From Micrococcus luteus NCTC 2665 (GTDB taxonomy: Bacteria > Actinomycetota > Actinomycetes > Actinomycetales > Micrococcaceae): 32,000 nucleotides of DNA. The stretch is from the NCBI RefSeq assembly GCF_000023205.1, contig NC_012803.1:90001-122000 (forward strand). Direction: 5' to 3'. The notes under the pieces were generated by a model, which did not search any database, had not been told where the DNA came from, and saw nothing but the letters and a program-made list of their open reading frames with translations. Made by a program: the position numbers and the translations under genes. Position 1 is the stretch's first letter, and every line of letters begins with the position of its first letter. This document shows positions 2 through 30,934 of the stretch, in pieces.

Positions 2-253
2 CTGTTCCACTCGGACTTCGGCGCGCTGGCCTGGTGCTTCCTCGGCTTCCTCGCGTTCGCCGTCCTGCTGCCCTGGCTGGGGTGGATCCTCGCCGGGGCG
101 CTGCTGTTCTGGTGCGTCACCCGCGCGTTCGGCGCCCCGCACCCCGTGTTCGACATCCTCGTCGCCCTGTTCGTCTCCTCGCTGGCCTACCTCGGCTTCG
201 CGGTGGCCCTGGGCCTGACCCTGCCCTCGGGCATCCTGGGAGGTGGCTTCTGA
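2..253 (+). CDS. tctB: TctB-family small membrane subunit of a tripartite tricarboxylate transporter (5' end outside window)
   Basis: The frame is open from the window edge to TGA 251-253. The product is hydrophobic and Trp/Leu/Phe-rich (..LPWLGWILAGALLFWCV..LAYLGFAVALGLTL..). It ends 1 nt before the tctA start, matching the usual tctB-tctA order. It is not in the ORF track because it is truncated. Confidence 0.5.
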   Translation: MFHSDFGALAWCFLGFLAFAVLLPWLGWILAGALLFWCVTRAFGAPHPVFDILVALFVSSLAYLGFAVALGLTLPSGILGGGF

Positions 254-254
254 C

Positions 255-1760
255 ATGGAGACCCTCGGACTCCTCATGGAGGGCTTCGCCGGAGCCCTCA
301 CCCCCATGAACCTGCTCTGGGTGGTGCTGGGCTGTCTGCTCGGCACCGCGGTCGGCGTGATGCCTGGACTGGGCTCCTCGATGGCCGTGGCCCTGCTGCT
401 GCCCATGACCTTCGCCCTCGAGCCCACCGCCGCGTTCATCATGTTCTCCGGCGTGTACTTCGGCGGCCTCTTCGGCGACTCCACCATGGCCATCCTCATG
501 AACACCCCCGGCCAGGCCTCGGCCATCGCCTCCACGTTCGAGGGCCACCGCATGGCCCAGGACGGCCGGGCGGCCCAGGCCCTGGCGACGGCGGCGCTCG
601 GCGCCTTCATCGGCGGCATGGTGGCCTCGGTGTGCGTCGTGTTCCTCGCCCCCGTCCTGGCGGAGTTCTCCACGAGCTTCGGGCCCGCGGAGTACTTCGC
701 GCTCGCGCTCTTCGCGTTCGTGGCCACCTCCTCGGTGGTCGCGGACTCGGTGCTGCGCGGCCTGGCCTCCCTGGTGCTGGGACTGGGCATCGCCGTCGTC
801 GGGATCGATGCGGTGACCGGCGCCGAGCGCTTCACGATGGGCTCCCCGCAGCTGTTCGACGGCATCCCGCTCGTGACCGTCACGGTGGCGATCCTCGCGC
901 TCGGCGAGGTGTTCCACGTGGCCTCCCGGGTGCGCCGCGAGCACGAGGACCTGCGCATCCGCCGCACCGGCCGGCCGTGGCTCTCGGGCGCCGAGTTCCG
1001 CGAGGCCGCCCCTGCGTGGCTGCGCGGCACGGCGATCGGCCTGCCGTTCGGCATCGTGCCGGTGGGTGGCTCCGAGGTGCCGACGTTCCTGGCGTACTCG
1101 GTCGAGCGGCGCCTGGACCGGCGCCGGGCGCATCCGCAGTTCGGCCGGGGCGCGATCCGCGGGCTGGCGGCCCCCGAGGCGGCGGGCAACTCGACCACCG
1201 GCATGGCGATGGGCGCCCTGCTCACGCTCGGCCTGCCCGTCTCCGCGACGGCGGCCATCATGCTGGCGGCGTTCCGCCAGTACGGGCTGCAGCCCGGCCC
1301 GCTGCTGTTCGACCGCAGCCCGGACCTCGTGTGGGCGCTGCTGGCGAGCTTCTTCATCGCGATGATCGTGCTGCTGGCGATCAACCTGCCGTTCGCGCAG
1401 CTGTGGGCCAAGCTCCTGCTCATCCCGAAGCACTACCTCTACGCGGGGATCACGCTGTTCTGCGGGCTGGGCATCTACGCCACCACGGGCGCGGTGTTCG
1501 ACCTGCTGATGCTCCTGGGGATCGGCGTGCTGGGCTTCCTGATGCGGCGGTACGGCTACCCGCTGGCGCCGCTGATGATCGGCATGGTGCTCGGCCCGCT
1601 GGCGGAGACCAGCCTGCGCGACGCCCTGCTCAGCTCGGTGGGCGACCCGGCCGTGCTCGTCTCCACCCCCATCACGTGGGTGATCTACGGGATCCTGGCG
1701 ATCGTGCTGGCGTTCTCGGTGCGGGCCGCCGTCGTGAGCCGGACGCGCCAGGACGTGTGA
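255..1760 (+). CDS. tctA: Tripartite tricarboxylate transporter large permease TctA
   Basis: Taken from ORF track 243..1760. I prefer ATG 255 (METLGLLMEGFAGALTPMNLLWV..), a typical TctA N-terminus, over GTG 243. The product is a ~500-aa polytopic membrane protein with Gly/Ala-rich helices throughout. Confidence 0.85.
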   Translation: METLGLLMEGFAGALTPMNLLWVVLGCLLGTAVGVMPGLGSSMAVALLLPMTFALEPTAAFIMFSGVYFGGLFGDSTMAILMNTPGQASAIASTFEGHRMAQDGRAAQALATAALGAFIGGMVASVCVVFLAPVLAEFSTSFGPAEYFALALFAFVATSSVVADSVLRGLASLVLGLGIAVVGIDAVTGAERFTMGSPQLFDGIPLVTVTVAILALGEVFHVASRVRREHEDLRIRRTGRPWLSGAEFREAAPAWLRGTAIGLPFGIVPVGGSEVPTFLAYSVERRLDRRRAHPQFGRGAIRGLAAPEAAGNSTTGMAMGALLTLGLPVSATAAIMLAAFRQYGLQPGPLLFDRSPDLVWALLASFFIAMIVLLAINLPFAQLWAKLLLIPKHYLYAGITLFCGLGIYATTGAVFDLLMLLGIGVLGFLMRRYGYPLAPLMIGMVLGPLAETSLRDALLSSVGDPAVLVSTPITWVIYGILAIVLAFSVRAAVVSRTRQDV

Positions 1761-20395: not shown

Positions 20396-21235
20396 GTGCG
20401 TCCGACCTCGCCCCGTCCTGCCCCCGCCTACCTCACCGACTCCGTTCCCGCCCGTCGCGGCCACCCGCTGGGGTTCGCGCACCGGGGCGCCGCCGTCGAT
20501 CGGGAGAACTCGCTGGCCGCGTTCGTGGACGCCCACGCCGCCGGGTTCACCTACCTCGAGCTGGACGTGCGCACCACGGCGGACGGCGAGCTCCTCGTCT
20601 TCCACGACGACACCCTGGACCGCGTCAGCACCGGCCGCGGCCGGCTGCGCGACCACACGTGGGAGCGACTGGCGGACGTCACGGTCGGCGGGGAGCCGCT
20701 GCTGCGCTTCACGGAACTGCTCACGGCGCTCCCCGAAGCCCGCCTGAACGTGGACCTCAAGGACCGCGCGTCGGCCCCGGCCCTGGCCCGCATCCTCGCC
20801 GAGCACGGCGCCTGGGACCGCGTGCTCGTCGCCTCGTTCCATGACTCGCGGCGCCGCCTCTTCCGGCGCGCCCTCGCCCGCCTCGGCCACCCCGAGCGGG
20901 CGTACGGGCCGGAGCGGGTGGCGACGTCGGGCGGGGCGGCCGCCATCGCGGCCCTCGTGACGCTGGGGCCGCTGGGACTGACCCGCTGGCTGCGCCGGTA
21001 CGCCCTCGACGTCGACTGCGTGCAGGTGCCCGTCCGGCACGGCCGCGTGCCCGTGGCCACCGCCGACTTCGTGCGCCGCTGCCACGCGGCGGGCCTGCCG
21101 GTGCACGTGTGGGTCGTCGACGAGCCCGCGGAGATCGAACGCCTGCTCGACCTCGGCGTCGACGGCGTCATGACCGACCGTGCCGACGTCCTCGCCGAGG
21201 TCTACGCCCGCCGCGGCTTCTGGCCGCAGCGCTGA
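20396..21235 (+). CDS. Glycerophosphodiester phosphodiesterase (GDPD family)
   Basis: GFAHRGA..ENS and YLELDVRTTADGELLVFHDDTLDR are canonical GDPD motifs. GTG 20396 is the first start downstream of the hairpin at 20291-20343. Confidence 0.8.
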   Translation: MRPTSPRPAPAYLTDSVPARRGHPLGFAHRGAAVDRENSLAAFVDAHAAGFTYLELDVRTTADGELLVFHDDTLDRVSTGRGRLRDHTWERLADVTVGGEPLLRFTELLTALPEARLNVDLKDRASAPALARILAEHGAWDRVLVASFHDSRRRLFRRALARLGHPERAYGPERVATSGGAAAIAALVTLGPLGLTRWLRRYALDVDCVQVPVRHGRVPVATADFVRRCHAAGLPVHVWVVDEPAEIERLLDLGVDGVMTDRADVLAEVYARRGFWPQR

Positions 21236-21277
21236 CCCCCGCCCGCCCCCGGCCCGCGGCTCGCGGCCCGCGGCCGA

Positions 21278-21349
21278 CTTTCGAGCGTGAAATCGGGGCT
21301 ATGGGCGCTTTCGAACGTGAGTTAGGCCCCATGTCACGTTCGAAAGCGC
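21278..21349. repeat. Structured intergenic repeat, copy B (two direct units plus one inverted unit)
   Basis: u1 is CTTTCGAGCGTGAAAT (21278-21293). u2 is GCGCTTTCGAACGTGA (21305-21320). u3 is TCACGTTCGAAAGCGC (21334-21349), a perfect 16-bp complement of u2 across a 13-nt loop. The copy lies between the convergent GDPD and ALDH genes. Confidence 0.6.
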
Positions 21350-21390
21350 GGGCCCAGCCGGGCCCGGCCAGCCCCGCCCCCACCCACCCC

Positions 21391-22905
21391 TCAGAGCATC
21401 TTCGGCAGCAGCGCCCGCTTCATCCGCCCGTACGGCGGGTACGCGGTCTTGAGCGTGTCCACCTGGTCCGACTTCGTGATGGACGGGCGCAGGTGGGAGA
21501 ACGTCTCGAAGCCGTGGATGCCGTGGTACGCGCCCATCCCGGACGCGCCGATCCCGCCGAACGGCAGCGTCGCGATGCCGGCGTGCAGCAGGCCGACGTC
21601 GTAGCCGAGGCCGCCGGCCTGCACCTGGTCGTCGAACGCGCGGTGGTAGCTCGGCCGGTCCGTGAACAGGTACGCGGCCAGCGGGTGCGGGCGCTCCGCG
21701 ATGAAGTCCAGGGCGTCCTGGAAGGTGTCCACGGTCAGCACGGGCAGGATCGGGCCGAACAGCTCCTCCTGCATGAGCGCGCCGTCCGGCTTGACGCCCG
21801 TCACCACGGTCGGCGCCATGTACCGCCCCGCCACGTCCACGTCGCCGCCGACGAGCAGCTCGGCGCCGGCGTCGAGGTCCGCCTGAAGCATCTCCCGCAG
21901 CCGCTCCGCGTGCTCGGCGGAGATGAGGCGGCCGTAGTCCTTCGACGCGCGGGGGTCGTCGCCGTAGAACTCGCGCAGGGCTGCGGGGAGCTCGGCGGTC
22001 ACCTGACGCAGCGCGGCCTCGCCGACGGCCAGCACGTAGTCCGGGGCCACGCACGTCTGACCCGCGTTGGTGAACTTCGCCCACGCGATCCGGCGGGCCA
22101 TCGCGCCCGTGTTCCGGGACGGCGTCACCACCGCCGGCGACTTGCCGCCCAGCTCGAGCGTCACGGGGGAGAGGGTCTTCGCCGCCGCCTCGTAGACGAT
22201 CCGGCCCACGCGCTCCCCGCCGGTGTAGAGGATGTGGTCCCACGGCTCCGCCAGCAGCGCGGTGTTGCACTCCTTGCCGCCCGCCACCACGGAGACCAGT
22301 GCGGAGTCCAGGTACTGCGGCACCAGCTCCCGCAGCGCCGCCGCCGTGGCCGGGGCCTTCTCCGACGGGCTGAGCACCACCGTGTTGCCGGCCGCCAGCG
22401 CGCCCACGACCGGGGCGAGCGCGAGCTGCACCGGATAGTTCCACGCGCCGATGACCAGCACGAGACCCTTGGGTCGCGGCCGGACCTCCGCGCTCGCGGG
22501 CCGCAGGGCCAGCGGCAGCTTCACGGGCCGCGGCTCCATCCAGTCGGTCAGGTGCAGCAGCGCGTGGTCCACCTCGGAGCGCACCGAGACGATCTCCGTG
22601 ATCAGCGCCTCGGTGGCCGGCTTGCCCAGGTCCGTGCCGAGCGCCGCGACGAACCGGTCCGCGTGCTCCGTCAGCATCCGCTTCAGGCCCTTGAGCTGGC
22701 GCACCCGCACCGCGCGCGGGTGGGCGGCGCGGGAGCGGGCGGCGGCGCGCAGACGCTCGACGGCGGCCCGCGGCTCCTCGGGTCGGGGCCCGGCCGGCGC
22801 GATCGGCAGGGCCTCGGTGGGCAACGGCTCGCGAACCGGATCGTCGTCGGGGGTGTCGGGGGCGTCGGTGGTCAGACCGGGGGGCTGCGTGCTCATGTCG
22901 GCCAC
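21391..22905 (-). CDS. NAD(P)-dependent aldehyde dehydrogenase (ALDH3-like)
   Basis: LELGGKSP and the catalytic-cysteine motif FTNAGQTCVAPDY are present. The ~500-aa length fits the ALDH family. Confidence 0.9.
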   Translation of the reverse strand: MADMSTQPPGLTTDAPDTPDDDPVREPLPTEALPIAPAGPRPEEPRAAVERLRAAARSRAAHPRAVRVRQLKGLKRMLTEHADRFVAALGTDLGKPATEALITEIVSVRSEVDHALLHLTDWMEPRPVKLPLALRPASAEVRPRPKGLVLVIGAWNYPVQLALAPVVGALAAGNTVVLSPSEKAPATAAALRELVPQYLDSALVSVVAGGKECNTALLAEPWDHILYTGGERVGRIVYEAAAKTLSPVTLELGGKSPAVVTPSRNTGAMARRIAWAKFTNAGQTCVAPDYVLAVGEAALRQVTAELPAALREFYGDDPRASKDYGRLISAEHAERLREMLQADLDAGAELLVGGDVDVAGRYMAPTVVTGVKPDGALMQEELFGPILPVLTVDTFQDALDFIAERPHPLAAYLFTDRPSYHRAFDDQVQAGGLGYDVGLLHAGIATLPFGGIGASGMGAYHGIHGFETFSHLRPSITKSDQVDTLKTAYPPYGRMKRALLPKML

Positions 22906-22971
22906 GCTACCGAGCCGCCCTGTGCGACGGCAGGGCGGGGCGCCGTCGTCGTCCCCCGCGCGACCCGCGCA

Positions 22972-23087
22972 CTTTCGTTCGGAAGAGGGCGCCCCCAGGG
23001 TCTTTTCGTTCGGGAAACGGCGCGCGCGCCCGGCCGTTTCCCGAACGAAAGCGGTGCGACACGCCGCCGTTTCCCGAACGAAAGCGG
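22972..23087. repeat. Variant structured repeat, copy C (two direct plus two inverted units; nested double hairpin)
   Basis: TTTCGTTCGGGAAACGG (23004-23020) is perfectly complementary to CCGTTTCCCGAACGAAA (23034-23050). The 21-mer CCGTTTCCCGAACGAAAGCGG occurs twice (23034-23054 and 23067-23087). CTTTCGTTCGG at 22972-22982 can pair with the distal copy. The element lies between the pgm stop and the ALDH start. Confidence 0.6.
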
Positions 23088-23100
23088 ACGGGGGCGGGTG

Positions 23101-24819
<1,719 letters not shown>

Positions 24820-24886
24820 GTGCCACACCTTGGCACGGGCGGGCGAACGGGGGAAGACGCGTGGCCCAGCGGGACGACGCCGGCGG

Positions 24887-25315
24887 TCACTTCCGGCAGC
24901 CGGCGCACAGCCCCCAGTAGTAGACCTCGGCCTCGTCGACCGCGAAGCCGTGGTCCTCGGGGGCGTCGAGGCACGGTGCGGAGCCGGTGCGGCACGGCAC
25001 GTCCACGACCGTGCCGCAGCCGCGGCACACGAGGTGGTGGTGGTTGTCGCCCGTGCAGATCTCGTAGCGGGCCGGGGAGCCGGCGGGCTGCAGGGAGCGC
25101 ACGAGCCCGGCCTCGGTGAGCGCGTGGAGGCAGTCGTAGACGGCCTGGTGCGAGGTGCCGGGCAGGGCCCGACGGACGGCGGCCAGCACGGTGGACGCGT
25201 CCGCGTGGGGGTGGTCGGCGAGGGCGGTCAGCACCGCGAGGCGGGGCCGGGTCACGCGCAGGCCGACGCCGCGCAGCAGCGTGCGCTCGTCCTCGTCCCG
25301 CGTCGTGGTCTCCAT
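24887..25315 (-). CDS. Fur-family metalloregulator (FurA/PerR-like)
   Basis: The winged-helix N-terminal half is [14 protein letters not shown]. The metal-site region [10 protein letters not shown] and the C-terminal CAGC form CxxC...CxxC. From memory, the C-terminal [11 protein letters not shown] resembles mycobacterial FurA. I prefer ATG 25315 over 25330 because of the promoter geometry. Confidence 0.85.
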
Positions 25316-25323
25316 GCCAGTCG

Positions 25324-25352
25324 ATCCCATCCGGTTCTCTGGAACATGTCAA
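25324..25352 (-). promoter_or_regulatory. Candidate fur promoter (leaderless) within a relatively AT-rich patch
   Basis: On the minus strand, a perfect TTGACA (complement of 25347-25352) is followed by a 17-nt spacer and TGGGAT (complement of 25324-25329). ATG 25315 lies 8 nt further downstream. Confidence 0.35.
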
Positions 25353-25476
25353 GAAAGAGCGGGCCGCTTCGCCCCCGGCGCACCGGCCATTCCCCGCCGT
25401 CCCCGTGCTGACTACGGTGAATCCTCGACCCCGGGGCGCACCGGCCCGGGCGCCGTCGATGAGGAGGTCCCCACCC

Positions 25477-26595
25477 ATGGCCCAGCCCGAGCCCGTCCGT
25501 CTCGTCCCGGGTGGAGCCGTGGACCGCCCGGCCGAGCAGGCCCTCCTCGCGGCCGCCGCGGCCTGCGGCGGCGACGTCGACGCGATGGTCGAGCTGCTCC
25601 GTGCGGCTTCCGGCGCCGCGTCCGGCGAGGCCGCCGCCCCGCTCGACCTGCCGCTGACCGGCGCGGGGCGCACCCGCGAGCAGTGGGAGCTGCTCGCCTC
25701 CGTCGCCGCGCAGGACCTCTCGGCCGCCCGCGTGCTCGAGCCCCATCTGGACGCGCTCTCGATCCTGTCCCAGGCAGGCGTCCCCGCCCCGGCCGGGCTG
25801 CTCGGCGTCTACGCCTCCGAGTCCGGCGGCCGCACCCCCGCCCTGCGCCCCGTCCCGGACGGCCCCGACACCGCCTGGCTGCTCGACGGCGAGAAGCCGT
25901 GGTGTTCGCTCGCGGACCGGTGCGCGGCCGCCGTCGTGACCGGCCGGGAGGCGGACGGCACCCGCCGCGCCGTGCTCGTGGACCTGTCCCACCCCGGCGT
26001 GGCCGAGACCGACTCGGCCTGGCCCGCGCTCGGCCTCGCCCCGATCCGCACGGTGGGCCTGGCCTTCGACGCCGTCCCCGGCAACGCCGTCGGCGGCGCC
26101 GAGTGGTACCTGCGCCGGCCCGGCTTCGCGTGGGGCGGCATCGGCGTGGCGGCGGTGTGGTTCGGCGGCGCCGTCGGCATCGCCCGCACCCTGCGGAACG
26201 CCACCGCCGCCCGCGCGGCCGCCGAGGCCGAGGGCCGCGGACCGGGCCCGGACCAGATCGGCCAGGCCGCGCTCGGCCGCGTCGACCGGCTGCTCCACGC
26301 GATGGCCGCCCTGCTCGCCCGTGCCGCCGACGACGTGGACGCCGGCCGCCTGGACCACGGCCGCGGCATGGTCGAGGCCGACCGGATCCGCGGCACCGTG
26401 GCGCAGCTGTGCACCGAGGTGATGGACGTCGTCGGGCAGGCCACCGGCCCCGGCCCGCTCACCGGCAGCGCCGCGCACGCCCGCGCCGTCGCCGACCTGC
26501 AGGTCTACCTGCGCCAGCACCACGGACACCGCGACGACGCCCGGCTGGGCGCCGCGCTCCTGACCGGCGAGACCGACGGCGGCTGGACGTGGTGA
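25477..26595 (+). CDS. Acyl-CoA dehydrogenase-fold flavoprotein (type-2 / group-D monooxygenase-like)
   Basis: GAGGAGG (25461-25467) lies 9 nt upstream of ATG 25477. The blocks LSAARVLEPHLDALSIL, LLDGEKPWCSLADRC and a C-terminal helical domain are consistent with the ACAD superfamily. The stop TGA 26593-26595 overlaps the next gene's GTG. Confidence 0.7.
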   Translation: MAQPEPVRLVPGGAVDRPAEQALLAAAAACGGDVDAMVELLRAASGAASGEAAAPLDLPLTGAGRTREQWELLASVAAQDLSAARVLEPHLDALSILSQAGVPAPAGLLGVYASESGGRTPALRPVPDGPDTAWLLDGEKPWCSLADRCAAAVVTGREADGTRRAVLVDLSHPGVAETDSAWPALGLAPIRTVGLAFDAVPGNAVGGAEWYLRRPGFAWGGIGVAAVWFGGAVGIARTLRNATAARAAAEAEGRGPGPDQIGQAALGRVDRLLHAMAALLARAADDVDAGRLDHGRGMVEADRIRGTVAQLCTEVMDVVGQATGPGPLTGSAAHARAVADLQVYLRQHHGHRDDARLGAALLTGETDGGWTW

Positions 26596-28715
26596 GCTTC
26601 TCCCACACCGACGACGGCACGTCCGAGGCGGCCTGGGCCGAGGGCGGCGTCGACGAGCTGCCGGAGCTGCGCCTGCCCGTCTGGGACGCGCAGACGCTGC
26701 TGCTCGTGGCCGTGGCGCACCCGGATGACGAGACCCTCGCCGCCACCGGCCTGATCCGCTCCGCCCTGCGCGGCGGGGCACGCGTGCACGTGCTGGTCGC
26801 CACCGCCGGCGAGGCCTCCCACCCGCACTCGCCCACGCACACGCCCGAGGACCTGGTCCGGCTGCGCCGGGACGAGATGGAGCACGCCCTCGACGCCCTC
26901 GCCGCCGGCCTGCCCGCCTCCGCGGGCCCCGGCTCCCCGGCGCGGGACCGGCTGACCTGGGCGTCCCTGGCCCTGCCCGACTCCGGCGTGGCCGAGCACG
27001 AGGACGCCGTGCGCGACGCCGTCGCCGCGGCCCTCGACGCCCACCCCGGCCCCGCCGTGCTCGCCTCCCACGACCCGGGCGACGGCCACGCGGACCACGA
27101 GGCCGTGGGCCGGGCCGTCGGCGCGGTCGCGGGCGAGTGCGACCTGCCGCTCTACGCCTTCCCCATCTGGTTCTGGCACTGGGCCGACCCGGCCGACCTG
27201 CCCGCCCGCCGCTACCGACGGCTGCCGCTCACCGACGACGACCGTGCCGCCCGCCGTGCCGCCCTCGACGCGCACGCCTCCCAGGTCCGGCCCCTCTCCG
27301 CCGCGCCCGGCGACGAGGCGATCCTCGGCCCCGCCGTGCTCGCCCACCACGAGCGCCCGTTCGAGGCCCACCGCGTCTCCGGCCCCGACGACGCCGACGC
27401 CCACCGGGCCGCCGCCGTCTTCGACCGGCTCTACCGGGCCCAGGAGGACCCGTGGCGCTACCTCAGCTCGTCCTACGAGGCCCGCAAGCGGGCGCTCACC
27501 CTCGCCGCCCTGCCCCGGCCCCGCTACGGGACCGTGGTCGAGGCGGGCGCGTCCATCGGCGTGCTCACCGCGGACGTGGCCGCGCGCGCGGACCGCGTGG
27601 TCGGCCTCGAGGCGTCCCCCACCGCCGTCGAGCGCGCCGCCGCCCGGCTGGCCGGCGCGCCGCACGCCGAGGTGCGCCGTGCCGTGCTGCCCGCGGACTG
27701 GCCGGCCGACGTCGCCGGCGCGGACCTCGTGATCGCCTCCGAGATCGGCTACTTCCTGCAGCCCGAGGAGCTCGACGCGCTGATCGACGACGCCGACGCC
27801 GCGCTCGCCCCCGGTGGCGAGCTGCTGCTGTGCCACTGGCGCCACCCCATCGAGGGCTGGCCGCTGGACGGGGACGCCGTGCACGCGCGCGTCGCCGCGG
27901 ACCCGCGCTGGCGGCTGCGCACCGAGCTCGTGGAGGACGACTTCCGGCTCAGCCTCCACGTGCGGGCCGCCGCCGCGACCCACGCCGTCGTCGTGGTGCC
28001 CGCCAAGGACGAACAGGAGCGGCTGCCGGCCGCGCTCGCGGCCCTCGCCGCCGCCCTGGACCGCTGGGAGGAGCACCACGCGCAGGGCACGGCCGCGGTC
28101 GTGGTCGCCGCGGACCGCTGCGACGACGCCACGGTGGCCGCCGCCCTCGAGGCCCGCGCCGCCGACCCGCGCATCCACGTCCTCGAACTGGCGGAGCCGA
28201 CCGCCGGGCAGGCCGGCGTCGGGCGGGCCCGCGTGGAGGGCGCCCGCCGGGCCCGCGCGCTGTTCCCCGACGTGCCCGCCGAGCGCCTCTGGCTCGCCTC
28301 CACCGACGCGGACAGCCGCGTCCCCGCCGACTGGCTGCTGGCGCAGACCGTGGCCGCCGGCCGCGACGAGGCGCTCGTGCTGGGCACGGTGGACGTGCGC
28401 CAGGGGCCGCTGCGGCAGGCCTGGCTCCGCGGCTACCGGCACGAGGAGGGGCACGCGCACGTGCACGGGGCGAACCTGGGGCTGCCGTGGTCGCTGTATG
28501 AGGCCGTGGGCGGGTTCCCGCCGGTGGCCGAGCACGAGGACGTCGGTCTGGCCGAGGCCGTGCGGGCCCTGGCGGGGGAGCGCGACGGCGGTGACGGCCG
28601 CCGGGTGCGCGTGATCGCCACCGACACCACCCGCGTGCTCACCTCGTCCCGCCTGGAGGGGCGGACCCCCGGCGGGTTCTCCGGGTACCTCAAGGCGGTG
28701 GGCCGGCCCGGGTGA
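26592..28715 (+). CDS. Trifunctional fusion protein: PIG-L (LmbE-like) deacetylase + NodS-like SAM methyltransferase + family-2 glycosyltransferase (707 aa)
   Basis: One uninterrupted frame runs from GTG 26592, which overlaps the upstream stop as GTGA. Roughly aa 35-262 carry the PIG-L motifs VAHPDDETL and GHADHEAVG. Roughly aa 272-458 carry EDPWRYLSSSYEARKRAL, VVEAGASIGVLT and GGELLLCHW. Roughly aa 463-700 carry VVVVPAKDEQERL, TDADSRVPADW and VAEHEDVGL. Confidence 0.75.
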   Translation: MSFSHTDDGTSEAAWAEGGVDELPELRLPVWDAQTLLLVAVAHPDDETLAATGLIRSALRGGARVHVLVATAGEASHPHSPTHTPEDLVRLRRDEMEHALDALAAGLPASAGPGSPARDRLTWASLALPDSGVAEHEDAVRDAVAAALDAHPGPAVLASHDPGDGHADHEAVGRAVGAVAGECDLPLYAFPIWFWHWADPADLPARRYRRLPLTDDDRAARRAALDAHASQVRPLSAAPGDEAILGPAVLAHHERPFEAHRVSGPDDADAHRAAAVFDRLYRAQEDPWRYLSSSYEARKRALTLAALPRPRYGTVVEAGASIGVLTADVAARADRVVGLEASPTAVERAAARLAGAPHAEVRRAVLPADWPADVAGADLVIASEIGYFLQPEELDALIDDADAALAPGGELLLCHWRHPIEGWPLDGDAVHARVAADPRWRLRTELVEDDFRLSLHVRAAAATHAVVVVPAKDEQERLPAALAALAAALDRWEEHHAQGTAAVVVAADRCDDATVAAALEARAADPRIHVLELAEPTAGQAGVGRARVEGARRARALFPDVPAERLWLASTDADSRVPADWLLAQTVAAGRDEALVLGTVDVRQGPLRQAWLRGYRHEEGHAHVHGANLGLPWSLYEAVGGFPPVAEHEDVGLAEAVRALAGERDGGDGRRVRVIATDTTRVLTSSRLEGRTPGGFSGYLKAVGRPG

Positions 28716-28813
28716 GGCCGGCCGGGGAGCAGGGGCGCAGGGCCGGGCCGGGTCCGGGGGGCACCGCCTAGACTCGGCACCGGACCGCGACGCCCCGAAC
28801 CGGAAGGACCGTC

Positions 28814-29383
28814 ATGACCGACCCCCACGCCTCCCACGACCCGCGCCGTGAGGCCGCCCGGCCGAGCTGGTACGGGTCCGAGGCCGGTGCGGGCTCCTCC
28901 GGCACCGGCTCCTCCGCCGCCGGCTGGCCCGACGCCCCGGCCGGCGACGCCGACCGCGCCGCCTGGGACCGGGCCCCCTCGTACGCCGAGCAGGAGGGGC
29001 AGACCCGCCCCGCCTACGGGCAGCCGTACGGCTACGGCCAGGACGCGAACACCGTCCCCGCCTACGGCTACGGGCAGGGCACGCCCGGCCACGGCTTCGG
29101 AGCCCCGCTGCAGCCCGGCCAGACCGACGGCGTCGGCCGCTCGGTGGCGTCCATGATCCTCGGCATCATCTCCGTGGTGGGCGGGTTCACGTTCCTCCTC
29201 CCGCCGATCGTGGGCGTGGTCCTCGGCCACATCGGCCTCAAGCGCGAGCCCCACGGCCGCGGCATGGCGATCGCCGGCCTCGTGATGAACTACGTGTCCC
29301 TCGCCCTGCTGCTGCTCGCCGTCGTGTTCCTCGTGATCCTGGTGATCGCCGGGATCTCCCTGGGCGACTACACCTCGACCTGA
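28814..29383 (+). CDS. DUF4190-type small membrane protein with a Pro/Gly/Tyr-rich N-terminal region
   Basis: The SD GGAAGGA lies upstream of ATG 28814, and a TAGACT -10-like hexamer lies at 28769-28774. The C-terminal half SMILGIISVVGG..GVVLGHIGL..GLVMNYVSLALLLL is typical of DUF4190 proteins with two TM segments. Confidence 0.7.
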   Translation: MTDPHASHDPRREAARPSWYGSEAGAGSSGTGSSAAGWPDAPAGDADRAAWDRAPSYAEQEGQTRPAYGQPYGYGQDANTVPAYGYGQGTPGHGFGAPLQPGQTDGVGRSVASMILGIISVVGGFTFLLPPIVGVVLGHIGLKREPHGRGMAIAGLVMNYVSLALLLLAVVFLVILVIAGISLGDYTST

Positions 29384-29392
29384 CCGGCCGGC

Positions 29393-30934
29393 TCAGCCGG
29401 CCAGCAGCAGCTCGAGGTGCGCGGCCAGGGCGAGCAGGGGCGCGGACGTGCCGGGCCGGCCGATGAGCTGGACGGACCAGTTCAGGCCCCGCTCGTCCCG
29501 GAGCACGGGCACCGCGACCGCGGGCAGGCCGAGCACGTTGACCATCGAGGTGTAGGGCGTGAACGCGCACTGCGCCTCGTAGTTGGCCTCGGGCTCCATC
29601 GCCAGGAAGTGGCCGACCGGCGGGGGCGCGGTGGCCAGCACCGGGGTCATCACCACGTCGACGGCGGCGAACTGCGCCCGCACCCCGCGCGCCCACTCCT
29701 CGAGCCGGTGGGCGGCGTCGTCGAGCTCGGCGCGCCCTGCGGCCCGGGCCGTGCGCAGGAAGTGCGCGGCCACCGCGCCCACGTGGGCCTCGGCGTCCTC
29801 CGGCAGCGGCGCCCGGAGCAGCCCGGCGGTCCACACCGTGCGGAAGTCCCGGTGGTAGTCCTCGCCGTAGTAGGGGGAGAGGTCCTCGACCGCCTGGCCG
29901 CCCGCGTCCAGGGCGGCGGCGGCCTTCGTCAGGGCGGTGACGGCGGGCCGGGCCAGGGAGATCTCGAGGTTGGAGGCGAAGGGCGAGGCCGTGGTGACGC
30001 CGATCCGGCGGGCGTCGACGGCGCCCCCGGCCCGGGCGGTCTCCACGGTGCGGCGCAGGTCCGGCAGCACCCGGCCGGGCAGACCCTCGGGGGAGAGCAG
30101 CACGTCGTAGAGCAGGGCGGCGTCCTCGACCGTGTGGGCCAGCGGGCCCGACACCGTGAGGTTGCGGACCGTGTCCGCGTGCTCGTCCATCGGCAGCTCC
30201 CCGCGGCCGGGCTTGAGGCCCACGAGCCCGCACGCGGCGGCGGGGATGCGGATGGACCCGCCCCCGTCCGAGCCCGGGGCGAACGGCAGGATCCCCGCGG
30301 CGACGGCGGCCGCGGCCCCGCCCGAGGAGCCACCCGCGGTGCGGGCGGGGTCCAGGGGGTTGCGGGCCGGCGCCGTGACGAGGTTCTCCGAGTAGGAGTC
30401 CAGGCCGAACTCGGGCACGGTCGTCTTGCCGAGGGTGACCGTGCCGGCCGCGCGCAGGCGGAGCGCGAGCGGGTCGTCCTGCGCGGCCGGCGGCGCATCG
30501 GCCAGCAGGGCGGAGCCGAACCGCGTGGGCATCCCGCGCACGTCGATCAGGTCCTTGTACGCCAGCGGAAGGCCGTGCAGGGAGGCGGGGGCGCCGTCGT
30601 CGTCCGGGGCGGGGGAGGTGTGCGGACCGGGCACGGCCCGGGGTGCGACGCGCGGGTGGGCCGCGTCCAGCTCGGCCGCACGGGTCCGGGCGCCCTCGGC
30701 GTCGAGGAGGGCGAACGCGCCGAGGTCCGCGTGGGCCTGGGCCGCGGCGAGGGCCGCCTCCGTGACCTCCCGGGCGCTCAGCGCCCCGGCGGCGAGGTCC
30801 TCCCGCAGGCGCACGGCCGAGCGGTCCAGGAGCCGGGCCGGGCCGGGGGCGGAGGGGGTGCGGTCGTCGTCGGCGGCGGGTGCGGCGTCGGAGGTCTGCA
30901 TGCGGCCGAGCCTAACGGGCGTGGGCCGGGTCAT
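29393..30934 (-). CDS. Amidase-signature family enzyme
   Basis: The amidase signature TAGGSSGGAAAAVAAG and GSDGGGSIRIPAA is present. An alternative start is ATG 30901 (MQTSD..). Confidence 0.85.
   Translation of the reverse strand: MTRPTPVRLGRMQTSDAAPAADDDRTPSAPGPARLLDRSAVRLREDLAAGALSAREVTEAALAAAQAHADLGAFALLDAEGARTRAAELDAAHPRVAPRAVPGPHTSPAPDDDGAPASLHGLPLAYKDLIDVRGMPTRFGSALLADAPPAAQDDPLALRLRAAGTVTLGKTTVPEFGLDSYSENLVTAPARNPLDPARTAGGSSGGAAAAVAAGILPFAPGSDGGGSIRIPAAACGLVGLKPGRGELPMDEHADTVRNLTVSGPLAHTVEDAALLYDVLLSPEGLPGRVLPDLRRTVETARAGGAVDARRIGVTTASPFASNLEISLARPAVTALTKAAAALDAGGQAVEDLSPYYGEDYHRDFRTVWTAGLLRAPLPEDAEAHVGAVAAHFLRTARAAGRAELDDAAHRLEEWARGVRAQFAAVDVVMTPVLATAPPPVGHFLAMEPEANYEAQCAFTPYTSMVNVLGLPAVAVPVLRDERGLNWSVQLIGRPGTSAPLLALAAHLELLLAG

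Follow-up and report, generated by a model that had tools for sequence, protein, structure and literature searches.

The PIG-L, MshB and BshB enzymes de-N-acetylate a GlcNAc glycoside directly after the glycosyltransferases of their pathways have acted. Three pairs of enzymes thereby follow the same order: PIG-A and PIG-L in GPI-anchor biosynthesis, MshA and MshB in mycothiol biosynthesis, and BshA and BshB in bacillithiol biosynthesis. To our knowledge, none of these pathways methylates the sugar amine and none relies on a fusion protein. In the Nod-factor pathway, the GT2 enzyme NodC builds the GlcNAc glycoside, NodB deacetylates it, and NodS then N-methylates it.

Here, we describe a locus of Micrococcus luteus NCTC 2665, contained in a window of 32,000 nucleotides (positions 90,001 to 122,000 of NC_012803.1), in which a PIG-L/LmbE-type de-N-acetylase, a NodS-like methyltransferase and a GT2 glycosyltransferase are joined in one chain behind an ACAD-like (acyl-CoA-dehydrogenase-fold) gene. 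The logic proposed for this module is the same as that of Nod-factor tailoring, and its methyltransferase domain matches both Pfam NodS and the NodS structure 3OFK. However, the deacetylase has the PIG-L/LmbE fold rather than the CE4 fold of NodB, the glycosyltransferase is a small soluble domain unlike the processive membrane chitin-oligomer synthase NodC, and the module lacks a NodA-type acyltransferase. Likewise, PIG-A, MshA and BshA belong to family GT4, whereas the domain described here belongs to GT2. In the literature, we found no published function for the module and no published biochemical or genetic data on any of its members. By itself, a fusion of this sort is evolutionarily commonplace; its value lies in the evidence it provides and in the orphan pathway to which it points.

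Architecture of the fused reading frame

The fusion is encoded by a single frame that runs uninterrupted from 26592 to the TGA at 28713-28715 and contains three Pfam domains (Table 1). Third-position GC amounts to 0.98-1.0 in each segment scored, with linker 1 included and linker 2 counted within larger segments; therefore, the frame is coding throughout and is not a chance frame of the 74% GC genome. The start lies at 26592 or at a second in-frame GTG at 26589, which is the start of many database copies (708 aa), and the upstream stop is overlapped in both cases. The resulting GTGGTGA, also present in Arthrobacter and Kocuria, is a predicted translational-coupling junction. The initial annotation had reported one unbroken frame across the three modules and a GTGA overlap with the upstream gene, and both are found in the sequence (GTG 26592-26594, TGA 26593-26595). 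As a separate observation, chance open frames exist in this genome, and the frame of the fusion is formally open already from 25155.

TABLE 1. Features of the M. luteus module. Nucleotide positions are those of the window; residues are numbered along the fusion protein.
Feature	Residues	Nucleotides	Strand	Basis or remark
ACAD-like (acyl-CoA-dehydrogenase-fold) gene		25405..26595	+	ORF, weak Pfam matches; first cistron of the module
Start/stop overlap GTGGTGA		26589..26595	+	candidate GTG starts 26589 and 26592; ACAD-like TGA 26593-26595
Fusion ORF		26592..28715	+	707 aa, 75.0 kDa, pI 5.3; no transmembrane-type hydrophobic segment
PIG-L/LmbE-type de-N-acetylase domain	1-263	26592..27380	+	Pfam PF02585
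AHPDDE	42-47	26715-26732	+	PIG-L motif
HADH	166-169	27087-27098	+	PIG-L motif
Linker 1 (GPDDAD), PIG-L to methyltransferase	264-269	27381..27398	+	model secondary structure
NodS-like class I SAM-dependent methyltransferase domain	270-458	27399..27965	+	Pfam NodS, Methyltransf_25
Methyltransferase motifs	DPWRY 286-290, EAGASIG 317-323, SEIGYFL 383-389, CHWRHP 414-419		+	
Linker 2 (AAAAT), methyltransferase to GT2	459-463	27966..27980	+	lineage-specific join
GT2 (GT-A fold) domain	464-707	27981..28712	+	Pfam PF00535
GT2 motifs	VVPAKDE 468-474, ADRCDD 507-512, HGANLG 625-630, TSSRLEGRTPGGF 684-696		+	
DxD motif STDADS	570-575	28299-28316	+	GT2 domain

The N-terminal domain scores 80.6 bits with PF02585 (cut-off 28.2; E 1.8e-22) over aa 38-178, covering profile positions 1-127 of 129. 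As known from MshB and BshB structures, the metal-binding and general-base motif of the PIG-L family combines an AHPDD close to the N-terminus with an HxDH further along the chain. This motif is intact in the fusion, with H43, D45, D46, H166, D168 and H169 invariant across 18 homologues, and Foldseek matched the domain to the teicoplanin pseudoaglycone deacetylase Orf2 (3DFF). Orthology to MshB, Mca, BshB1 and BshB2 was ruled out by scores of 17.8-22 bits against NCBIfam equivalog cut-offs of 182-277.

The central domain scores 26.8 bits with Pfam NodS (PF05401; cut-off 24) and also matches Methyltransf_25, both at aa 283-417. Among the homologues aligned, the glycine-rich SAM-binding motif I is invariant at E317-x-G319-x-S321-x-G323, and the acidic residue after strand 2 (in GLEAS, aa 338-342) is E or D. 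The sole solved structure found for the subfamily is 4ISC (E 7e-39, 47% identity, TM-score 0.93), a Pseudomonas syringae protein that is standalone, at 164 residues, rather than fused and that its entry names only ‘putative methyltransferase’. The NodS structure 3OFK matches with an E of 2.4e-6 by sequence and a TM-score of 0.77-0.80 by fold. A true NodS was ruled out (32.8 bits against the NF041650 equivalog cut-off of 300), and the domain is NodS-like.

The C-terminal domain matches PF00535 (Glycos_transf_2) at aa 467-613, scoring 36.3 bits (cut-off 23.3). T-D-A-D (aa 571-574) together with P, E and other residues is invariant in 28 orthologues, and VPAxDE and DxxxD are conserved.

An AlphaFold2 model of the whole chain (mean pLDDT 83, pTM 0.78; low confidence in the C-terminal half of the glycosyltransferase domain, i.e., the last 110 residues) defines the borders between the domains. 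Here, the last PIG-L strand (aa 257-263) is followed by the first methyltransferase helix (aa 270-283), and the last methyltransferase strand (aa 451-458) by the first GT2 strand (aa 464-471). The two linkers placed between these secondary-structure edges nearly coincide with the module boundaries proposed initially (27380-27405 and 27965-27978), and their 5-6 residues agree with the short linkers of about 5-10 aa described at that stage. Linker 1 varies in length among homologues. By contrast, linker 2 has an identical length, without indels, in 11 of 11 aligned Micrococcus and Citricoccus fusions; Arthrobacter, Kocuria and Clavibacter have at this site a stop, a start and 10-30 additional residues.

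The upstream gene gives weak Pfam matches to Acyl-CoA_dh_M and Acyl-CoA_dh_1, and a profile of 29 orthologues lies about equally close to true ACADs (CarC, 6e-11) and to DszC-type flavin monooxygenases (1e-8). It directly precedes the PIG-L gene in at least 80 loci. Its N-terminal start is uncertain, as the alignment of homologues begins only at about residue 30-80.

Distribution and origin of the fusion

The triple fusion occurs in Micrococcus and Citricoccus (M. luteus, M. endophyticus, M. flavus, M. terreus and Citricoccus spp.), where it comprises 28 protein clusters and approximately 1,380 sequences of 687-772 aa, with a query coverage of 97-100% and identities of 48-98%. The M. luteus cluster holds 1,106 members, nearly all of 707-708 aa among those read, and fused orthologues come from five or more further species or genera, with contigs reaching 3.1 Mb. 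Synteny around the fusion is conserved, the order being phosphoglucomutase or Fur, ACAD-like, fusion, amidase and rhodanese, with DUF4190 in most cases. Furthermore, no catalytic-type motif in any of the three domains varies across the 18-28 homologues compared. This is an authentic three-domain protein on which selection acts, and it is virtually certain that the fusion is real, conserved and specific to this lineage.

In the wider family, 79 of the 83 loci sampled, largely from Micrococcales and Propionibacteriales, show the order ACAD, fused PIG-L/methyltransferase and glycosyltransferase; the NCBI-source name of the two-domain proteins is ‘bifunctional PIG-L family deacetylase/class I SAM-dependent methyltransferase’. 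The full module was located in Polaromonas as well as numerous actinobacterial genera, and adjacency is conserved at over 85 loci. Plantactinospora, Polaromonas, Rhodococcus and a metagenome contig (L087) keep the four genes apart and thus encode four polypeptides in place of the fused chain; in such unfused modules, the genes are adjacent and overlapping, in the order ACAD, PIG-L, methyltransferase and glycosyltransferase or in the cyclic order glycosyltransferase, ACAD, PIG-L and methyltransferase. Other fusions join ACAD, PIG-L and methyltransferase (Clavibacter; P0165), a methyltransferase and two GT2 domains (P0250), or two methyltransferases. A standalone methyltransferase of this subfamily has 1,853 related clusters at E <= 1e-10, and most among the 120 listed have about 200 aa. 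By annotation only, a similar four-gene operon, ACICU_02432-02435, adjoins blsA in Acinetobacter baumannii (PMC5660220, PMC6240043, PMC9020721).

Because the gene order is conserved and at least three different fusions arose independently, the four families appear to form one functional unit. The same gene order and repeated independent fusions support the prediction of a common substrate for the three domains. The initial annotation had described a genuine fusion of three normally separate enzymes and had suggested comparing orthologous loci; its central claim stands, with approximately 1,380 sequences fused in Micrococcus and Citricoccus and separate adjacent genes in other bacteria. The word ‘separate’, however, applies in this lineage to the glycosyltransferase and not to the PIG-L and methyltransferase domains, which already share one protein in 79 of the 83 loci. 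Therefore, the Rosetta-stone reading holds, but what sets Micrococcus and Citricoccus apart on the sequences sampled is the glycosyltransferase join alone.

A probable origin of this join emerges from comparison with the two-domain proteins of Arthrobacter, Kocuria, Pseudarthrobacter and relatives (approximately 450 aa). These proteins are collinear with aa 1-455 of the fusion (43-52% identity), carry the same motifs and occupy the same place in the operon, with an ACAD-like gene before, a GT2 gene after, and GTGA-type overlaps. They stop after the methyltransferase and leave the GT2 as a separate overlapping cistron, whereas the fusion carries it covalently and lacks the methyltransferase tail and glycosyltransferase head encoded by the relatives’ genes. 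At the junctions inspected in Arthrobacter, Kocuria and Clavibacter, neighboring genes share 4 nt (ATGA or GTGA). As the overlapping genes lie in different frames and the tail and head are missing, the join did not arise by simple loss of a stop codon. The fusion derives from the widespread operon of ACAD-like, PIG-L, methyltransferase and GT2 genes, with cistrons overlapping by a few bases and with PIG-L and methyltransferase fused beforehand, as in most sampled actinobacterial loci. A short deletion across the 4-nt overlap would have taken out both stop and start, along with the tail of the methyltransferase and the head of the glycosyltransferase, while restoring the frame, leaving a tight 5-residue linker; we infer that such a deletion is the likely fusion event. 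A single event in an ancestor shared by Micrococcus and Citricoccus would fit the data: when only aa 1-455 served as the query, 28 of 28 triple fusions ranked above every two-domain protein. This reading draws on the ranking and the linker length, not on a rooted phylogeny.

Proposed chemistry and competing readings

From knowledge of the families, a mechanism can be proposed in which the GT2 domain would move GlcNAc from UDP-GlcNAc onto an acceptor, the PIG-L domain would strip the N-acetyl group, and the NodS-like domain would N-methylate the freed sugar amine. The upstream ACAD-fold flavoprotein may contribute some redox or tailoring step. The fusion would fix the three activities at 1:1:1 and may hand intermediates between sites. 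That all three domains are active in one pathway is quite probable, and the combination of fusion, parent operon and proposed mechanism is, in our judgement, a likely overall explanation. The specific route from GlcNAc via GlcN to N-methyl-GlcN is plausible, with somewhat less than an even chance of being correct. In its favor, the methyltransferase resembles NodS in both sequence and fold, the PIG-L domain retains the metal-binding and base motif of its family, and the PIG-L and methyltransferase domains, which would catalyze consecutive steps, are the pair fused most often. Against it, the order in the chain (deacetylase, methyltransferase, glycosyltransferase) differs from the proposed reaction order, the nearest solved relatives of the GT2 domain are membrane-anchored polyprenyl-phosphate enzymes although this domain has no hydrophobic segment, and methyltransferase motif I deviates, reading GASIG in the fusion instead of GCSIG as in relatives.

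Tentatively, the module may make an undescribed N-methyl-glucosaminyl metabolite or glycoconjugate. If so, one candidate product is a new low-molecular-weight cofactor resembling mycothiol or bacillithiol, another an amino-sugar modification of the envelope, and the pathway would extend across many Actinomycetota and into some Proteobacteria; the strongly regulated A. baumannii operon adjoining blsA may belong to it as well. The Micrococcus fusion would then serve as a single-protein reagent to reconstitute three of the four steps. Because this 75-kDa protein unites three predicted activities in one soluble chain, it offers a practical in vitro entry point to the pathway.

A first alternative, which we consider unlikely, holds that the fusion is real but neutral, i.e., a ratchet-like merger of coupled neighbors in a compact high-GC genome without channelling or mechanistic significance; as the deviating motif I could suggest, one of the domains may even have decayed into a pseudo-enzyme. 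The ancestral genes were already overlapping and co-translated, and fusing them would therefore alter expression little. Moreover, the sporadic fusions elsewhere in the family (ACAD-PIGL-MT, MT-GT-GT and MT-MT) suggest that such joins form easily and are not strongly selected. The invariance of the catalytic-type motifs in 18-28 homologues nevertheless argues against neutrality. In addition, the linker between methyltransferase and glycosyltransferase keeps its length down to approximately 50% identity, which suggests a constrained interface, and the pTM of 0.78 for the three-domain chain suggests a defined mutual arrangement of the domains. These points fall short of proving channelling.

A second alternative keeps the fusion but assumes a different, lipid-linked chemistry, modelled on ArnC/ArnD, in which the GT2 domain would load a sugar onto polyprenyl phosphate, as ArnC, GtrB and DPMS do, and the PIG-L and methyltransferase domains would tailor the lipid-linked amino sugar for the envelope; the product would then not be a soluble small molecule. 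The nearest solved relatives of the GT2 profile are compatible with this scheme, which we regard as improbable: they are ArnC (2.3e-8), 6YV7 (‘Glycosyl transferase, family 2’), dolichol-phosphate mannose synthase (DPMS) and GtrB/sll0501. However, these PDB matches span chiefly the generic nucleotide-binding half of the fold. Polyprenyl-phosphate GT2 enzymes of the ArnC, GtrB and DPMS type are anchored in the membrane via C-terminal transmembrane or interface helices. A hydropathy search for such an anchor found none in the fusion: no stretch is of transmembrane type or strongly hydrophobic, and Kyte-Doolittle values over 19 residues peak at 1.34, within a linker. No conserved flippase or GT-C transferase stands beside the module in the loci read. 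A link to the envelope is further suggested by ACICU_02432-02435, which falls 31- to 62-fold in lpxC-disrupted, colistin-dependent A. baumannii mutants (PMC5660220), but the likeness of this operon to the module is one of annotation only.

Finally, the initial annotation had raised the alternative that two stop codons were lost in sequencing or assembly, so that three adjacent genes were read as one, and although a single indel could in principle merge the methyltransferase and glycosyltransferase genes, which are separate and overlap by just 4 nt in close relatives, and although a 74% GC genome yields long chance open frames, such an artefact is extremely improbable in view of the independently sequenced fused proteins from several species (the 707-708 aa product in many M. 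luteus assemblies and orthologues at down to 48% identity on the long contigs noted above), the clean junction of constant length from which the ancestral tails are gone, and a third-position GC of at least 0.98 in each segment scored. Public databases already hold the fusion protein, under-annotated as ‘PIG-L family deacetylase’.

A conserved three-domain fusion

A search of 5.8 billion proteins with the fusion as query returned 28 clusters of 687–772 aa, covering 97–100% of the query at 48–98% identity. Of the 1,106 members of the top cluster, those read belong to M. luteus or Micrococcus sp., are nearly all 707–708 aa long, and carry simply the NCBI name 'PIG-L family deacetylase'. Other fused orthologues come from M. 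endophyticus (86% identity), M. flavus (65%), M. terreus (51%) and Citricoccus spp. (48–52%). Micrococcus and Citricoccus loci were obtained by exact-protein look-up, and the fused gene lies on large contigs in Citricoccus muralis (3.13 Mb), M. flavus (2.51 Mb) and M. terreus. There, the neighbourhood is much like that in the window: a phosphoglucomutase or Fur-family gene, a gene with an acyl-CoA-dehydrogenase fold (ACAD-like), the fusion, an amidase and a rhodanese, with DUF4190 in most. The initial annotation had proposed either a genuine fusion or the loss of two stop codons during assembly. The 28 clusters and the shared neighbourhood point to M. luteus or a near relative as the source of the window and make the fusion a fixed feature of a clade; the stops are not uniquely missing here, as orthologous loci in Micrococcus and Citricoccus are also fused, and assembly loss is thus excluded.

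As first read from the sequence, the three modules share one uninterrupted frame, in which Pfam places PIG-L, NodS/Methyltransf_25 and Glycos_transf_2. On the + strand this frame is formally open over 25155–28715 (1,186 aa), which means little alone because chance ORFs of more than 1,000 codons occur on both strands at the window's GC content of 74.4%. Other spurious, very long ORFs span 21109–25119 (+, 1,336 aa) and 26505–28535 (−, 676 aa). Such ORFs, in non-coding frames or antisense, result from the 74% GC content, so length by itself is no evidence for a gene in the window. Conversely, third-position GC is 0.98–1.0 in all three domains and in linker 1, between the PIG-L and methyltransferase (MT) domains, and the fusion frame is thus coding throughout.

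The product (75.0 kDa, pI 5.3) has no transmembrane-type hydrophobic segment in its 707 residues. Its AlphaFold2 model, built from an alignment of 18 sequences, has a mean pLDDT of 83 and a pTM of 0.78, and the linkers that it delimits (Table) agree in essence with the module boundaries (27380–27405 and 27965–27978) and linker lengths first estimated. The reported GTGA overlap is likewise present, GTG 26592–26594 overlapping TGA 26593–26595 of the upstream ORF. At this site (26589–26595), both in-frame GTGs overlap the upstream TGA. Some database copies of the fusion have 707 aa and others 708, which leaves the start codon ambiguous. Scans of 24800–29500 for promoter and terminator consensus sequences gave no matches, as expected for a 74% GC actinobacterium.

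Table. Coordinates of the fusion gene, the domains and linkers of its product, and the upstream gene
Feature	Residues (aa)	Position (nt)	Strand	Basis
ACAD-like ORF	396 aa as listed	25405–26595	+	GTG at 25405
Fusion gene		start GTG 26592 or in-frame GTG 26589; stop TGA 28713–28715	+	
PIG-L domain	38–178			Pfam, E 1.8e-22, 80.6 bits (cut-off 28.2)
NodS/Methyltransf_25 domain	283–417			Pfam
Glycos_transf_2 domain	467–613			Pfam, 36.3 bits (cut-off 23.3)
Linker 1	264–269	27381–27398	+	Secondary structure of AlphaFold2 model
Linker 2	459–463 (AAAAT)	27966–27980	+	Secondary structure of AlphaFold2 model

Module architectures and the origin of the GT2 join

Architectures are written below with a slash between separate genes and a hyphen between fused domains. 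Scanning a single genome from each GTDB species for PIG-L-domain patterns yielded at least 80 loci. Of these, 80, with Micrococcus not among them, were classed together with three loci from protein look-up by whether the four domain matches fell in one stop-to-stop frame. Among the matches listed, 79 of the 83 loci have the architecture ACAD/PIGL-MT/GT, including those of Arthrobacter, Pseudarthrobacter, Kocuria, Sinomonas, Tersicoccus, Microbacterium, Cryobacterium, Cellulomonas, Sanguibacter, Intrasporangium, Nocardioides and others. In the Arthrobacter (L001) and Kocuria (L002) loci, which share this layout, adjoining genes overlap by 4–7 nt, with GTGGTGA as the first junction and ATGA or GTGA as the second. 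One locus, from Clavibacter sp. CT19 (L003 5001–7616), has ACAD-PIGL-MT/GT with a product of 871 aa; one, from Rhodococcus (L082 3968–7040), has the four separate genes GT/ACAD/PIGL/MT; and in two MAGs the module is incomplete, one reaching its contig end. Set against the 83 loci among the matches listed, ACAD/PIGL-MT-GT was found in the window only. In Nocardioides pini STR2 (L038 5332–6009), an in-frame stop lies inside the tblastn match to the GT2 domain, which could reflect a pseudogene or a sequencing error.

Searched exhaustively by HMMER, the MT domain alone matched 148 representative clusters at E ≤ 1e-30. These comprise standalone MTs of ~190–215 aa and PIGL-MT proteins of ~430–530 aa, together with ACAD-PIGL-MT (876 aa), MT-GT2, MT-GT2-GT2 and MT-MT; the triple fusion accounts for only two 50%-identity clusters. 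A standalone MT used as seed matched 1,853 clusters (E ≤ 1e-10); of the 120 listed, most are ~200 aa long. In the gene contexts read, four separate, overlapping genes occur as ACAD/PIGL/MT/GT on a metagenome contig and in Plantactinospora, and as GT/ACAD-like/PIGL/MT in Polaromonas (L089 1484–4606). Thus, the initial expectation that these activities are usually encoded by separate adjacent genes applies to the family at large but fails in most Micrococcales and Propionibacteriales sampled, in which PIG-L and MT are already one protein.

Several variants were observed besides. The cyclically permuted order, with GT first, is found in a betaproteobacterium (Polaromonas) and a Rhodococcus; for the ACAD-like protein of Polaromonas, no Pfam match is on record. 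An independent alternative fusion of ACAD-like, PIG-L and MT (871–876 aa), with a separate GT2 gene, is represented by Clavibacter and the database protein P0165. Further architectures of the family are found at L088 4001–6265 (MAG DASTHS010000037) and in the homologous proteins P0250, P0124 and P0135; the family includes an MT-GT2-GT2 protein (754 aa) encoded behind a PIG-L gene of its own, an MT-GT2 protein (381 aa) that may not be complete, and a 365-aa protein with two MT domains in tandem.

Only the GT join is specific to the Micrococcus and Citricoccus lineage, and the fusion is a new architecture of an already named bifunctional protein. Eleven triple fusions were aligned with virtual concatenations of gene pairs from Arthrobacter, Kocuria and Clavibacter. 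The fused proteins lack about 5–14 C-terminal MT residues and 5–30 N-terminal GT residues, and five residues (AAAAT; aa 455–470 read …LHVRAAAATHAVVVVPAK…) connect the final MT strand (…FRLSLHVR) to the first strand of GT (HAVVVVPAKDE…). The length of this linker is identical in all eleven aligned Micrococcus and Citricoccus sequences. Simple stop-codon read-through was rejected as an explanation of the join: the MT and GT frames of relatives differ, with a 4-nt overlap, so a stop mutation alone could not have joined them. The simplest fusing event would be a 3n+2-base deletion spanning the MT/GT boundary. With residues 1–455 alone as query, all 28 triple fusions outrank every two-domain homologue, a sequence-based ranking consistent with the fusion having arisen once, in the Micrococcus and Citricoccus lineage. 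Overall, the fusion first noticed is confirmed and its interpretation supported, with two corrections: the GT join alone is lineage-specific, and a boundary deletion is inferred in place of stop-codon loss.

Domain families and a proposed pathway

The PIG-L domain carries AHPDDE (aa 42–47) and HADH (aa 166–169), both invariant in 18 homologues; they match the metal and base motif of the PIG-L family seen in the MshB and BshB structures. In the MT domain, homologues share invariant DPW-Y, E-x-G-x-S-x-G, SE-GY and CHW motifs. This domain is closest to PDB 4ISC (47% identity, E 7e-39, TM-score 0.93), a solved standalone protein from Pseudomonas syringae labelled just 'putative methyltransferase', and then to the N-methyltransferase NodS (3OFK; TM-score 0.77–0.80). 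In the GT2 domain, VPAxDE, DxxxD and T-D-A-D are conserved or invariant across 28 orthologues, which also share the family-specific motifs HGANLG, GGF…EDV and TS-R--GR-P-GF. In Foldseek, the complete three-domain model matched methyltransferases almost exclusively, which added nothing for GT2. None of the curated NCBIfam models claims any of the three domains, and membership in the MshB, BshB, Mca and NodS equivalogs was rejected, with scores far under the cut-offs.

For the GPI anchor, mycothiol and bacillithiol, a PIG-L-family enzyme de-N-acetylates a GlcNAc glycoside made by the preceding glycosyltransferase, and NodS methylates the amine freed by NodB on a GlcNAc residue. By analogy with this logic, the GT2 domain would transfer GlcNAc to an acceptor X, the PIG-L domain would convert GlcNAc-X to GlcN-X, and the NodS-like domain would make N-methyl-GlcN-X. 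PIG-L and MT are by far the commonest fused pair among the 83 loci listed, which accords with their consecutive steps in this proposal. A lipid-linked route in the style of ArnC/ArnD is a live alternative: the GT2 profile is nearest to polyprenyl-phosphate glycosyltransferases (ArnC, 2.3e-8; 6YV7; DPMS; GtrB), but the domain lacks the membrane anchors of the ArnC, DPMS and GtrB type.

A full-text literature search on the module or its locus tags found no account of the fusion or of a function for the module; two P. aeruginosa matches are unrelated and concern DnpA/PA5002 in an LPS-core cluster. An Acinetobacter operon beside the blue-light sensor gene blsA is annotated as acyl-CoA dehydrogenase, GlcNAc-PI de-N-acetylase (LmbE), methyltransferase and glycosyltransferase (PMC6240043, PMC9020721, PMC9948694). 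In the numbering of strain ACICU, these genes (ACICU_02432–02435) show a 31- to 62-fold drop in colistin-dependent mutants with a disrupted lpxC (PMC5660220). The operon is likened to the Micrococcus module by identical annotation and gene order only.

Gene fusions within operons are common, so this one will not surprise a specialist; its interest beyond the routine comes from the orphan four-gene module behind it, which is widely distributed. Given the fusion pattern, that module can with good reason be treated as one pathway, on which the Micrococcus fusion protein offers a convenient handle.

The upstream ACAD-like gene

The N-terminus of the ACAD-like ORF is Arg/Pro-rich, and orthologues align only from about residue 30–80; the true start may therefore lie further downstream. 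Two identities were weighed for the protein, a true acyl-CoA dehydrogenase and a flavin monooxygenase of the DszC or nitrososynthase type. A single-sequence search gave almost no matches, and a 29-sequence profile matched both classes at similar E-values (true ACADs: CarC, 6e-11; DszC-type monooxygenases: 1e-8), in an alignment that, as shown, ended before the C-terminal region. An invariant C-terminal motif particular to the family (Q371, H373, R376, D377) lies beyond the reach of the one PDB alignment shown. A divergently transcribed 147-aa ORF (24887–25330, −) lies ~75 bp upstream of the ACAD-like gene (gap 25331–25404), occupying the place of the M. flavus Fur-family gene, which there adjoins a catalase-peroxidase gene.
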